From an uncultured Spirochaetota bacterium (GTDB lineage: Bacteria; Spirochaetota; Brevinematia; Brevinematales; JAOACQ01), in assembly GCA_963835575.1 (NCBI GenBank), contig CAWIGG010000004.1, positions 128,001 to 192,000 of the forward strand: a DNA stretch of 64,000 nucleotides. The letters are read 5' to 3'. Every line of letters begins with the position of its first letter. The stretch's first letter is position 1. The notes beneath the pieces were generated by a model. That model did no database searches. It was given only the letters and a program-made list of their open reading frames with translations, and was not told where the DNA came from. Below, one piece after another: positions 59,034 to 64,000 of this stretch. The position numbers were made by a program, and so were the translations under genes.

Positions 59034-59253
59034 GATTTTTCCTCCTGTTAATAAAAAATAATGCCCGCCATGATACAACCCCCTGCCGTACTATCCTCCG
59101 CTAATTACTCCCATGATAAACTGCCGTTTAAATAAAAAGTAATATTATATTGCCGGAAAGTCAATACAATTATAAAAAAATGATTGGATCAGCATTGAGT
59201 ATTTCTTTTTTTCTTTGAAAATTAATGCTATATTGTTTATAATTAAATGCATA

Positions 59254-59294: not shown

Positions 59295-60776
59295 ATGAAA
59301 AAAATAACCGTTCTATTCCCCATTATTTTTATATTGGTTTTATTATTCTCCTGCGGCAGCACGGCAAGCGCCGTAAAGCAGGACCCCTCGCCCCAGGTTT
59401 CTTCCGGCCAGCCTTCCTGGGTCGGTACTTCTAAAAAAGATAAGGATTATTTTTACGCCGTGGGCTATGTTGAGGATACGGCGGGCCTGGATGATGTCAA
59501 AGCGAAAGCCTTCCAGAACGCCAAAGGACAGATCGCCAACAATATTTTTGAGGAAACATCCGTTGAAAAGGTTTTTACCGCTTCGGGCGGGCTTTCCGAT
59601 AATGAAGAACTGAAAAAAGGGTACCAGGAAAAAGTCAGAAGCGAGAGCGCCGTGAATCTTTCCGGCGTGGAAATCGAGGATGTCTATTCCGAAAAAACCG
59701 AGGATTCAGGCTTGACGGTGTATAAAGTATGGGTCCTGGCGAAAATATCCTATAAAAACCTGGAAAAGGAAAGGAACCGCGTTATAACCGAACTGCAGAG
59801 AAAGCTCGCTCTTGTGGATAATAATATCAAAGCGGCCCAGGGTTTTACTAATGGCGGCAGGATAATTGACGCCGTCAACGCCTATATAACAGCAGCTGTC
59901 AGTTCTACAAAAGTTAAAGAAAGGACCGACGAATTCCCCATTTATGTCAGTAAAGCGGAAAAACTCCTGGAAGGCATTATAATAGAAGCTCAGGATAATC
60001 CCTCCTCAATCGACACGGTTAAAGGCGGGGTTTTCGGTTTTAAAGTCACTTATGCCTCGCCGTCCGGTAAAATCCCCTTAAGCGGAGCTAAAATCAATTT
60101 TGTGATTAAAAATAATGACGGCGAATATGAAAAGAGCGGGGTTTCCGCTACGAACGGAGTTGTCGAGTGCCGGATAAAAAAGCTTAAAGAAGTAAAAAGC
60201 GATAACCGTTTATACGCGGTTTTTTCCTTCGATTTTCCCGATATTTTAGATCTTGGGAAGGAGTACCAGAAATATTATTCATCCCTTAAAGACAGCGAAG
60301 AGAAAATCAGCGTCTATACCGAATTTAAAACTATTTCCCGGGAAAACAGGAATATTCCCACAACGGTGATCGCCATGATCGCCGGGGAAAACGGGCTGAA
60401 AAATATCCCGGGCCTCTCTGCCGAAGCACAATCCTACCTGATCGACAGGGGTTATAAAGTGGTCAAATTTTCCGGCAGCCTGCCGCTGGAAGACATTGCC
60501 GAGGTCAAGCAGAGCGCGCTGGAAGAGCTGGCCTCAAAAGGGATCAAGCGCGTATTTATTCTCTCCGTGGCATCCCAGGCTAGCCCCAAATACAACCAGG
60601 AGCTGGACAGGTATCTGGGCGTATATTCCGTTTCCGCCCAGCTTGTCGACACGTCGAGCGGTGAGATCATTTCTTCGAAAAATATAAAAGTCAGCGCGAC
60701 CGCTCAGACAGAAAGCGGCGTGTTCGACTCCTTCATCAAAGCGGCCGGCAATCAGATTAAAAACCTGATCGAATAA
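59295..60776 (+). CDS. Lipoprotein (LPP20-like N-terminal domain)
   Basis: Lipobox LLFSC; PSWV, YFYAVG, AFQNAKGQIA; GGAGG RBS. Confidence 0.7.
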   Translation: MKKITVLFPIIFILVLLFSCGSTASAVKQDPSPQVSSGQPSWVGTSKKDKDYFYAVGYVEDTAGLDDVKAKAFQNAKGQIANNIFEETSVEKVFTASGGLSDNEELKKGYQEKVRSESAVNLSGVEIEDVYSEKTEDSGLTVYKVWVLAKISYKNLEKERNRVITELQRKLALVDNNIKAAQGFTNGGRIIDAVNAYITAAVSSTKVKERTDEFPIYVSKAEKLLEGIIIEAQDNPSSIDTVKGGVFGFKVTYASPSGKIPLSGAKINFVIKNNDGEYEKSGVSATNGVVECRIKKLKEVKSDNRLYAVFSFDFPDILDLGKEYQKYYSSLKDSEEKISVYTEFKTISRENRNIPTTVIAMIAGENGLKNIPGLSAEAQSYLIDRGYKVVKFSGSLPLEDIAEVKQSALEELASKGIKRVFILSVASQASPKYNQELDRYLGVYSVSAQLVDTSSGEIISSKNIKVSATAQTESGVFDSFIKAAGNQIKNLIE

Positions 60777-60782
60777 AGCAGA

Positions 60783-63700
60783 ATGGGTTTTATAAATTTT
60801 CACAGCCACAGCGAATATTCTTTTCTTGCGTCTCTTTTAAAAATCGATGAAATTGTCCAATTTTCCCTCTCCGGCGGTTTTGAGGGGTGCGCCGTTACGG
60901 ACACTCTTTCAACATACGGCTTTATAGAACTGTCCCGGACATGTCTTAAGAATAAAATTAAGCCGGTATTCGGCTGCGAGCTTTTTATAAAAGGGTCCGG
61001 TGGAAAGGGCCATTACCCGGTCCTTCTCATAGCCCTGGACAGACGCGGTCTGGAAAATATTTATCTGCTGAACAGCTTCGCCCACAAGCTTTACCTGAGC
61101 GAACACATTTATACATTACCGCAGGAAGTCCTTTTCTCTCATTATGAAGGACTGGCCGTACTGGCCGAATCAGAAATCTACTTTAACAGGAAAAATAAAA
61201 CAAGGGCACTAAAAATTGTTTCGCTCTATCAGGATGTTTTCAAGGAAAACTTTTTTGTCGAAGTGAATTATACCGGCGAAAAAAAAGTCCCTCTGCTCAA
61301 GGAAATAGTGGATCTGATCGAGGCCAACCGTTTCCCGGCATTGGCGGCATGCGAAGCCCGGTATTCCCGGTATGACGGCGATGCCTTTCCGGCACTGAAC
61401 GCTTACAGGGAAAAAAAAGAAGCGGGTAATGAAAAGGGCCTCCCTCTCGATACCGGATTCGATTTCTCTTTGAAAACAAAAGATGATTTCAGCCATTATT
61501 TTAAAAATCACCCGCAATATCTGGCCAACGCGGAAAGCCTCTTTGCCAGGATCGAGGACAATATCATTAAAAAAAGCTTCCCCGTGCCTCATTATATTAA
61601 AAGCCTGTCGAGGCTCAGAAAAATCTGCGAAAGAAAATTAAACGCTTATTGTTCCGATTCATTATACAGGATCAGGCTGGAAGAGGAACTCGGAATTATT
61701 GAGAAGGAAGGCATCTCTGATTATTTTATTTTCGCTTATGACATCGCCTGTTTTATCAAGATCAATAAGATCCCTTACGGGTTCGGGAAAGGCTCTCTTC
61801 CGTCGTCCCTTGTTTTATTCCTTCTGGGGCTGACAAAAATAGATCCGGTCGAACATGGGCTCCTTTTTGAGCTTTTTGTCCCGCCCGGTCTGCCCTTTTC
61901 GTATGAAATTGAACTGGATATATCCAGGAAAAAGAAAGGCGCGGTCTTTTCATATGTCCATTCAAAATTCGGAAAGAAAAATGTGTCATTTCTTTCGGTG
62001 ATAGACCGCTGGACAATCCGCTCGGCATTCCGGGCGGTCTCGAAATACAGCAGACTGGACAGGGATTCCGCAAAAATCCTTTCCTCATTTTTTAACAGGA
62101 GTAATTTTTCCATTGAAGAGGAATTAAATGCCGATTCGCGTTTTGCATTTCTCTATAATGAAAATAAAGAATTAAAAGAATGTTCGGACACGGTCCGCCG
62201 CCTGGACGGGAAAGCCTGTCAGAACCAGGTCCAATCGGACTGTTTTACCGTAATCCCTGGAGGTCTTGAAAAACAGGCCTCGCTGGATTACAATGCCGGA
62301 GGGGAACCATTTGCCGAATTAACCCGCGACGACGGTAGAATCAGCCCATTCCTCCGCGTTGTTTTAAATTCAAACCGCTCGGTCGCGATTATTGAAGAAA
62401 CAATGAGAACGGCAAAATTAAAAGACATAAATTATAATGACGGAGAAACCTATCTTTTATTAAGCGAAGGCAGAACAGCCGGCATCTTTACGCTGGAAAG
62501 CCCCGGCATCCGTGAATTTATAAAAAAAGCGCAGATAGATTCACTCTCATGCCTGTGCGATATTATCACCCTGTATAGAAAAGACCCCCTGACGCTTGGC
62601 ACGGCTTCAGATTATATTACCAGGAGAATCAACAACCTGAACTATGGGAAAGTCTCTCCGAAAGCCCATGAGACAAATCCGATCACATGGGAAACCTACG
62701 GTCTCATCCTGTATGAGGAGCAGGTTTTAAGGATTATCCATGAAGCGGCGGGGGTTGAACTGGATAAATCCATCCTGTTTCTCCAGGCGCTCCTTAAAAA
62801 AAACAACCCGGCGGTCCTTTCTTTTAAAAAGCAATTCATAAAGGGCTGCGTTCAAAACGGCAGCGATAAGGAATTCGCTCAAAGGCTTTTCGGTATTCTT
62901 CTCGAAGTCGGAAGGTGGGCCGTTAAGAAGTCCCATACTCTCAATTATGCTTACCTTGCCTATGCCGGGGCGTACCTGAAAACCCATCATCCCCTTGAAT
63001 TTTATCTTTCATACCTGAACAATAATCTCGACCTGTCTGAAAATTTAAATAAGATTATTATGGACATCCGCTTTTATTCCTGGAACATTAATATTCTTCC
63101 CATAAATATCAATAAAAGCAGATGCCTGTTTTCACTGGAAAACGGGAATATCAGGGCCGGACTTTATCTCATCAATCATTTAGGGCAGGAAACAGCGAGA
63201 AATATTGTCAGGGAAAGAAATAAGAATGGGATGTTCAAGGATATGCTTGATTTTACGCTCAGGATGTCATCATTCGATCTGCATGAAAAAGCCCTGGAAA
63301 ATCTCATCAAGGCCGGCGCTTTTTCTGAATCAGACCGCAGCGTATCAGAACTGCTTTCCACGGCGCATTCCGTATATAAATTCGCCCGGAAAGAAGAAAA
63401 GGACGAGGAAAACAGCCTCTTCGAACGGGGCGAACAGATCCCGGACCTGGAATACTTTATCAGGAAAAATCCGCCGGCGGACATGCCGGTCAATTCCATG
63501 GATGAATTTGAGGCCACGGATGTCTTCCTTACCCATGATCCTCTGGACAGGGTTAAAGACGTGCTCGGCCGGTACAGCGTGGACGAAACCGATCAGATGC
63601 AGAACCTGGAAAAAGGTACCTTTATCGCCTATCTGTTTCAGCTCAGGGCCGCGCGCAGCCGCCGGGGCGGAATGACGGCATCCGCACAGATATGCGACAG

Positions 63701-63860
63701 AAAAGGCATTGCCCGGGCCGTATTTTTCCCTTCGGTCTATCAGCGGTATTCTTCCATCCTGCAGAACCATACAATATACCTGATGAAGGGAAAAATAAAT
63801 AATAACCAGTTGATTGTCGAACAGATATTCCTCTTTGACGAGCTGATTAAAAACGGATGA
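60783..63860 (+). CDS. DNA polymerase III alpha (DnaE)-like protein with degenerate catalytic motifs
   Basis: PHP-palm-fingers-HhH-OB architecture (HSHSEYS, DYFI, IDPVEHGLLFE, ETYGLILYEEQV, LIKAGAF), but PDIDxD is replaced by YEIELD. Confidence 0.85.
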   Translation: MGFINFHSHSEYSFLASLLKIDEIVQFSLSGGFEGCAVTDTLSTYGFIELSRTCLKNKIKPVFGCELFIKGSGGKGHYPVLLIALDRRGLENIYLLNSFAHKLYLSEHIYTLPQEVLFSHYEGLAVLAESEIYFNRKNKTRALKIVSLYQDVFKENFFVEVNYTGEKKVPLLKEIVDLIEANRFPALAACEARYSRYDGDAFPALNAYREKKEAGNEKGLPLDTGFDFSLKTKDDFSHYFKNHPQYLANAESLFARIEDNIIKKSFPVPHYIKSLSRLRKICERKLNAYCSDSLYRIRLEEELGIIEKEGISDYFIFAYDIACFIKINKIPYGFGKGSLPSSLVLFLLGLTKIDPVEHGLLFELFVPPGLPFSYEIELDISRKKKGAVFSYVHSKFGKKNVSFLSVIDRWTIRSAFRAVSKYSRLDRDSAKILSSFFNRSNFSIEEELNADSRFAFLYNENKELKECSDTVRRLDGKACQNQVQSDCFTVIPGGLEKQASLDYNAGGEPFAELTRDDGRISPFLRVVLNSNRSVAIIEETMRTAKLKDINYNDGETYLLLSEGRTAGIFTLESPGIREFIKKAQIDSLSCLCDIITLYRKDPLTLGTASDYITRRINNLNYGKVSPKAHETNPITWETYGLILYEEQVLRIIHEAAGVELDKSILFLQALLKKNNPAVLSFKKQFIKGCVQNGSDKEFAQRLFGILLEVGRWAVKKSHTLNYAYLAYAGAYLKTHHPLEFYLSYLNNNLDLSENLNKIIMDIRFYSWNINILPININKSRCLFSLENGNIRAGLYLINHLGQETARNIVRERNKNGMFKDMLDFTLRMSSFDLHEKALENLIKAGAFSESDRSVSELLSTAHSVYKFARKEEKDEENSLFERGEQIPDLEYFIRKNPPADMPVNSMDEFEATDVFLTHDPLDRVKDVLGRYSVDETDQMQNLEKGTFIAYLFQLRAARSRRGGMTASAQICDRKGIARAVFFPSVYQRYSSILQNHTIYLMKGKINNNQLIVEQIFLFDELIKNG

Positions 63861-64000
63861 AGCCGTCATTGCGAGCATCCGACTTTATACTCTGCCGAAT
63901 ATTTTAAAGCGAAGCAATGGTTCGACAAGTTCACCACGGCGTCTGTCAGCTTTTAATACAGACTTGCCCTGAGCTTGCCGAAGGGTTGCTTCGCGCGATA
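63860..64000. repeat. Family A copy 4 (inverted, runs off the window) with family C inserts
   Basis: Matches the reverse complement of the copy-1 end; inner stem interrupted by GGTTCGACAAGTTCACCAC and TTGCCCTGAGCTTGCCGAAGG. Confidence 0.8.

Follow-up and report, generated by a model that had tools for sequence, protein, structure and literature searches.

The window analysed here is a 64,000-nucleotide stretch of contig CAWIGG010000004.1 (positions 128,001 to 192,000, forward strand; assembly GCA_963835575.1) from an uncultured Spirochaetota bacterium of the order Brevinematales, whose genome is called G000 and belongs to genus g1. Near the end of the window lies the gene for P0001 (60783..63860), a second protein of the DnaE type, beside the DnaE1 replicase (polymerase III alpha) of the same genome. 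The original prediction, made from the sequence alone, described it as a catalytically dead DnaE paralogue, maintained as a pseudo-enzyme and placed 6 nt after a lipoprotein gene. The 6-nt gap is correct, and the frame of 1025 codons runs without a stop. The features of the locus are collected in Table 1.

Table 1. Features of the two-gene unit, in window coordinates; D401, D403, D405, D555 and R362 are E. coli DnaE positions, other residue numbers are those of P0001
Feature	Position	Strand	Remarks
Sigma-70-like promoter match TTGAAA-17-TATAAT, 11 of 12, ahead of the two-gene unit	59215..59243	+	Consensus match only
Exported lipoprotein gene	59295..60776	+	Probable start 59295 after GGAGGA; lipobox LFSC; LPP20/FlgT-N-like domain, helices, Ig-like domain, TolB-N/CsgG/PelC-like domain
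Accessory DnaE P0001, 1025 aa, predicted to be catalytically dead	60783..63860	+	PHP-palm-thumb-fingers-HhH-clamp motif-OB, without C-terminal domain
PHP domain, about residues 1-258, metal site eroded	60783..61556	+	Family-specific T44, P79, N162, Y163, R193, N242, H243
GKGS instead of GRGS (R362 to K336)	61785..61796	+	Residue 335
YEIELD	61902..61919	+	E375 = D401 and E377 = D403 (catalytic Asp replaced); D379 = non-catalytic D405, kept
RVVLN	62355..62369	+	V527 in place of catalytic D555
Tandem helix-hairpin-helix (HhH) region	63087..63335	+	His replaces the hairpin's first Gly
ENSLF at the internal beta-clamp-binding motif position	63408..63422	+	Gln missing at position 1; L879-F880 invariant in the order
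OB fold	63609..63842	+	Below Pfam cut-off; protein terminus directly behind

An accessory DnaE and its active site

P0001 matched the Pfam models PHP, DNA_pol3_alpha, finger and HHH_6 over their cut-offs, and the OB fold is present although it stays under its own. The HhH and OB domains are thus retained, as had been proposed. The "complete DnaE architecture" of the original prediction stands for the domains from PHP to OB and fails for the C-terminal domain of the canonical copies, which is missing. In DnaE1 this domain binds tau. The AlphaFold2 model of P0001 is that of a well-folded DnaE, with a predicted local distance difference test score (pLDDT) of 87.5 and a template modelling score (TM-score) of 0.84 to both the M. 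tuberculosis and the E. coli DnaE. With 463.9 bits against TIGR00594 (cut-off 434.35), P0001 falls within the C-family DnaE superfamily. Its best NCBIfam score, 494.7 bits to PRK05673, lies far below the DnaE1 equivalog cut-off of 1002 bits, and the DnaE2 model gave a lower score still (252 bits). P0001 is not the replicase of its genome. The canonical dnaE expected elsewhere was found on contig C2 (G000:C2:912891-916379) as the sole other DnaE of G000; it has PDIDVD, KMDILG and GRGS with all catalytic and all nine PHP residues, and P0001 is only about 27-29% identical to it.

The motifs YEIELD, RVVLN and ENSLF read exactly as the original prediction had placed them, and GKGS lies at residue 335. 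Aligned to E. coli DnaE, P0001 has Glu, Glu and Val at D401, D403 and D555. Further replacements are R390 to L364, R396 to L370, H511 to Q484, R709/R710 to L667/Q668 and F756 to V714, among which R390, R396, R709 and R710 have substrate-binding roles. P0001 is a C-family polymerase fold without the catalytic triad and is predicted, from these replacements, to be inactive; the catalytic roles of D401, D403 and D555 are set out in passages of PMC3919608 and PMC8485763.

The predicted erosion of the PHP metal site was borne out by SFLAS, TDT and CEARY at residues 13, 39 and 190. Three of the nine metal ligands are unchanged (H7, H9 and E66) and one is an Asp-to-Glu change, so that P0001 departs from the nine-residue proofreading metal site HHDHEH[C/H]DH given in a section of PMC12926913.

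The candidate clamp motif ENSLF, as had been proposed, sits at the internal position used for beta-clamp binding, and its L879-F880 is invariant in 28 of the 28 full-length order-level rows, the set used for all conservation counts here (without the sister-order copies and five partial rows) in comparison with 42 other DnaEs. A predicted complex of residues 765-935 with the DnaN of G000 scored 0.53, against 0.00 for the best control (contact agreement between runs at least 97%, partner pLDDT at least 76), and gives weak support. Among 157 solved pairs 116 reached the mark applied, as did 2 among 215 mismatched pairs, and the band at or below 0.60 held 18 of the solved pairs and both mismatches; the pass may be explained by likeness to solved alpha-beta complexes.

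Distribution, loss of catalysis and selection

Orthologues were sought in a class sample of 43 genomes, 35 from the order and 8 from its sister order, f7. Within the order they occur in 22 of 35 genomes: 11/12 in lineage f1, where the genome without one is 57% complete, 1/1 in f2, 2/2 in f3, 4/4 in f4, 4/4 in f5 and 0/12 in f6. The catalytic triad is intact in 10 of the 22 (two of these being partial assemblies) and lost in 12, and the losses take different forms. The five copies of genus g1 have E, S, G, T and G at D401, E throughout at D403 and V, E, T, I and D at D555, and four of the five also lack much of the thumb; the G006 and f3 copies carry other substitutions, and the f4 copies (about 785 aa, for example P0123) have the palm deleted. 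A profile search of 1.84 billion representatives ranked eight more members before ordinary DnaEs, namely P0124, P0126 and P0127 (intact), P0129-P0132 (dead) and the fragment P0133. No family-level match was found outside the class among the matches listed from 151 phylum genomes, and the DnaE-type matches listed from phage records were only about 25-26% identical. A related-locus search of the genome contigs confirmed no relative. Members are annotated in their sources as "DNA polymerase III alpha" or, like P0123, as "hypothetical protein", and automatic annotation has hidden the family. What is new here is a single family with both live and dead DnaE members. A second DnaE fragment on a 1.3-kb contig of an f6 genome (L118, G029:C7) scored best to clostridial DnaE1, is probably bin contamination and was not counted.

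Residual or altered nucleotidyl transfer through E375, E377 and D379 is one rival explanation. In all five g1 copies the D403 and D405 positions are still acidic, and P0001 keeps the steric gate H760 (as H718) and K553 (as Arg). However, the other four g1 copies have S, G, T or G at D401, four of the five have lost D555, the surrounding arginines are gone and f4 has no palm at all, which makes this explanation extremely unlikely.

A more eroded DnaE copy of about 820 aa is present in 8 of 8 sister-order genomes (split across contigs in one). It aligns to the family profile over 220 columns with a probability of 98.8%, family members make up six of its eight outside matches, and it joins the family clade with a support of 87. 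These results suggest, short of proof given its long branch, that the relic belongs to the family. In 7 of the 7 loci examined it sits 3-16 nt behind a gene which we take, from its sequence, to be rplB. In these loci (L119-L124 and L075) rplW-rplB is separated from the remaining genes of the S10 ribosomal operon, with the relic directly behind.

All trees come from quick searches on subsets of rows, and those of the gene itself do without the partial rows G019 and G025. Descent of the family as a duplicate of the class's own DnaE1 was rejected by the approximately unbiased test (p-AU 2.5e-6), and its nearest tree rows are DnaE1-like proteins of other lineages. The best trees place it outside DnaE2, although a forced clade with DnaE2, tested with only six DnaE2-like references, was not rejected (p-AU 0.09). 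In the gene's own tree, built without the palm columns, the dead members require three to four changes. Two other gene trees from the same genomes reject a single dead clade, that of the linked lipoprotein gene (p-AU 1.5e-5, with three changes) and that of canonical DnaE1 (p-AU 3.7e-4). Because of these two rejections, and because regain of a whole active site is taken as implausible, we infer at least three losses of catalysis within the order, with a fourth if the sister-order relic belongs to the family. The erosion of the PHP domain is common to the catalytically intact orthologues and is therefore older than the loss of the polymerase residues.

The ratio of nonsynonymous to synonymous substitution (dN/dS) was estimated by NG86 for 19 genome pairs. 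It was 0.111, 0.128, 0.152 and 0.148 in the four dead pairs with unsaturated dS and 0.058-0.143 in four intact pairs, while the other 11 pairs, including all four with G000, were saturated. For five dead pairs the uncorrected ratio (pN/pS) came to 0.23-0.37 and its bootstrap limits stayed below 0.42; for two intact pairs it was 0.23. The frames are uninterrupted, and neither a dN/dS near 1 nor disrupted frames, the marks of pseudogene decay, appeared in the dead pairs that could be read, those with G000 being saturated. The dead orthologues are maintained by purifying selection.

Slow decay would explain the same gene as an operon passenger in which selection only purges misfolding or dominant-toxic variants until deletion. 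It draws support from a dN which, in most dead pairs, is two to six times the canonical DnaE value, from a graded erosion that runs from point substitutions over thumb and palm deletions to the sister-order relic, and from the failure to find the gene in f6. Against it, frames have stayed open across saturated synonymous divergence in four lineages, the dN/dS of dead copies matches that of intact orthologues, genome G003 deleted the upstream gene and kept the DnaE copy, and the sister order kept its copy in 8 of 8 small genomes within a different operon. The erosion is also domain-selective. The second palm segment, the best-conserved part of canonical DnaE with an identity of 0.82-0.93 in the four dead-lineage groups, falls to 0.33-0.40 in the dead copies, whereas their PHP and HhH domains keep 0.44-0.65. 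We regard decay as clearly unlikely.

Within the PHP domain, H243 is found in all 28 family rows and in none of the 42 other DnaEs, Y163 in 27/28 against 2/42 and T44 in 26/28 against 1/42. This clustering of family-specific invariant residues could mean that the PHP domain itself performs the function under selection, as a metal-poor phosphoesterase or pyrophosphatase or as a ligand pocket, with the rest serving as folding scaffold or for localisation. The eroded PHP domain of E. coli hydrolyses pyrophosphate, according to a part of PMC4822814, through H12 and D19, with D43, D69, H83 and D201 proposed as well. P0001 keeps H12, D43 (as D40) and acidic residues at D69 and D201, but has lost the equivalents of D19 and H83; in f4 only H12 and an acidic D69 remain, and the sister-order copy has neither. 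Moreover, the LF motif, HhH and OB parts are also kept, and a stand-alone PHP role would not need them. We therefore consider this explanation unlikely, though worth some weight.

The upstream gene and the genomic neighbourhood

In 20 of the 21 testable order genomes a lipoprotein gene precedes the DnaE start at a distance of -1 to +6 nt (the G024 locus is cut by a contig end), while the other neighbours vary. The upstream protein has a lipobox in 13 of 20 copies. A functional partnership with it, for example in handling incoming DNA or in tethering DNA to the envelope, would account for this adjacency amid changing neighbours and for the lack of a detected orthologue of either gene in 12 f6 genomes. 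On the other hand, the upstream protein is exported and has ordinary envelope folds in which no DNA-handling domain was found, the f6 co-loss is a single event in small genomes, and the sister-order homologue is unlinked, the dead DnaE there following rplB. The lipoprotein is, furthermore, missing in G003. A partnership thus appears very unlikely. The pairing, conserved across the order yet dispensable, is likely to be operon hitchhiking on a constitutive transcript, because the sister-order copy follows rplB instead; we take that second placement, too, as a ride on a constitutive transcript. By eye, the junctions show no Shine-Dalgarno sequence ahead of the DnaE start, in keeping with translational coupling.

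In G003 (L035, G003:C106, near 1640-1667), the bases ahead of the DnaE start resemble the lipoprotein's last codons and stop, which suggests a deletion that spared the polymerase copy. The sigma-70 scan found 13 sites against 8.0 in shuffles, so only the score and place of the site in Table 1 count. A distant paralogue of the upstream lipoprotein (G000:C2:851428-852642, E 1.8e-13) occurs in many order genomes. Behind the pair in genus g1 (window 63860-64000 and G000:C4:192260 onward) stand what are presumably rimP-nusA-infB-rbfA-like genes, recognised from their sequence; this neighbourhood is not kept in other genera. Rfam gave zero matches in the window and in three orthologous loci.

An inverted mutasome, in which a dead DnaE2-like scaffold serves an active Y-family polymerase under SOS control, would suit the DnaE2 grouping left unrejected above, the DinB-like gene of G000 and the DnaE2-like combination of a missing C-terminal domain, an eroded PHP domain and a weak clamp motif. 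Nevertheless, Y-family matches occur in 14 of the 43 genomes, with 0/4 in f4, 0/8 in f7 and 0/3 in g4. LexA had no match in G000 or f4 and exceeded its cut-off in 0 of 43 genomes, ImuA and ImuB gave no tblastn match in G000, and no repair gene is a conserved neighbour of the pair in the order loci. The presence of DinB, LexA or PolA in these genomes does not separate live from dead lineages. An inverted mutasome is accordingly very improbable.

A platform for epsilon was considered as a further candidate and is not supported. The order's main DEDDh domain, which sits inside a RecJ, occurs in f6 but not in f7, a distribution that does not track the family, and N242 aligns with E. coli D252, only a transient epsilon contact; the contact site is described in a part of PMC3664792. 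The gene concerned (L141:394-2655, G000:C4, outside the window) encodes, in the G000 copy read, a RecJ-like protein (about 750 aa) into which a DEDDh/DnaQ-like exonuclease domain is inserted. Such a long open reading frame with a DEDDh domain occurs in most order genomes, including f6, and has no match in f7. In f6, which lacks the paralogue, the canonical DnaE1 (L080, L083) has an eroded PHP metal site, and the sole DEDDh match per genome is of this long type.

Proposed role and comparison with known systems

The canonical dnaE on C2, the uninterrupted orthologues and a dN/dS of 0.11-0.15 in dead pairs agree with the maintained pseudo-enzyme of the original prediction, and we hold it highly probable that P0001 is dead yet functional. 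The accessory DnaE would be old, with its polymerase residues replaced later and its orthologues kept by selection for a non-catalytic role. P0001 would be made constitutively, probably at a low level, through translational coupling to the upstream gene. It may bind the clamp by the LF motif and DNA by the fingers, HhH and OB parts without extending primers. Lacking the C-terminal domain, it would not be tethered to the replisome by tau, and its remodelled PHP surface may recruit a partner. We judge the case for such a constitutive adaptor, sitting on clamp and DNA outside the tau-tethered replisome and turning its PHP surface toward a partner, to be evenly balanced.

The non-catalytic role may already have been present in the catalytically intact orthologues, which would explain repeated loss of catalysis without loss of the gene. 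The PHP, HhH, clamp LF and OB parts are retained while the palm erodes or is deleted. More tentatively, at somewhat less than an even balance, a family of C-family polymerases spanning the class may have a second, non-catalytic clamp function, of such importance that DNA synthesis was discarded independently at least four times, through substitutions, thumb and palm deletions and relics that are barely recognisable, with the gene kept. Such a series from active to pseudo-polymerase would point to a replication or repair factor, as yet undescribed, that binds to the remodelled PHP surface.

Several results weigh against the adaptor and against its selected maintenance. The family was not found in 12 of the 12 f6 genomes and is hence dispensable there. 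A single dead clade is not rejected in the gene's own tree without palm columns (p-AU 0.23). All G000 pairs are saturated at synonymous sites, so that selection on P0001 itself is inferred from its kin. The clamp motif lacks the Gln of QxxLF, and the sister-order relic has no LF motif altogether. Every family member shown has another residue at the first Gly of the HhH hairpin, and f3 and f4 at the second Gly too, which may leave DNA binding weak. Finally, no co-occurring partner gene was found that names the client.

A decoy absorbing phage or plasmid inhibitors of Pol III alpha would likewise retain the fold and, presumably, the outer surfaces while its sequence evolves faster. Its low identity to the replicase that it would mimic argues against this, as does vertical inheritance in housekeeping operons rather than in defence islands, and we consider a decoy highly improbable. 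The adaptor remains our preferred role for P0001.

The literature searched, comprising open-licence PMC and bioRxiv texts, describes no such protein, although the supplements of a 2014 survey of bacterial C-family polymerases (PMC3919608) could list such sequences. The available part of that survey calls the three catalytic aspartates "absolutely conserved", but its sequences were filtered for an intact active site. A 2026 survey (PMC12926913) treats, in the part available, four C-family groups as well as inactive PHP, DnaQ-like and Y-family proteins; its C-family section names no dead DnaE group, and a search of its supplement for selected terms gave no match. In the available part of a preprint covering the order (bioRxiv 10.1101/2025.07.04.663154), the word "polymerase" does not occur.

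Among known systems, DnaE1 (E. coli 5fku, 2hnh; T. aquaticus 2hpi, 3e0d; M. tuberculosis 7pu7) shares with P0001 the fold and the domain order from PHP to OB, with TM-scores up to 0.84, as well as the internal position of the clamp motif, and gives its best NCBIfam scores. P0001 differs from it in the replaced triad, the missing C-terminal domain, the eroded PHP site and its standing as a second copy beside canonical DnaE1. DnaE2/ImuC, including DnaE2B and DnaE2X, is likewise an accessory copy of about 1000-1050 aa with an eroded PHP domain and a clamp motif conserved only at positions 4-5, according to a part of PMC3919608. However, the triad is intact in DnaE2, which is found in linkage with ImuA/ImuB or a Y-family gene, whereas P0001 has neither the triad nor a link to imuA/imuB, a Y-family gene or lexA. 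The "DnaEX" proteins of Timinskas et al. (2014; same part of PMC3919608) are also strongly diverged extra DnaE copies, but that survey demanded an intact active-site region, so the dead members fall outside the label and the intact orthologues might fit it. The closest functional analogy is ImuB, a dead polymerase kept as a clamp-binding adaptor (PMC6511836, in part), which belongs to a different polymerase family and whose partners are known and co-encoded. A selected dead DnaE, if true, would extend the ImuB principle to the replicase family. With live and dead orthologues at one locus, comparison can separate what an accessory DnaE needs for synthesis from its other retained role, and it makes the non-catalytic roles of the PHP, HhH and OB parts directly testable.

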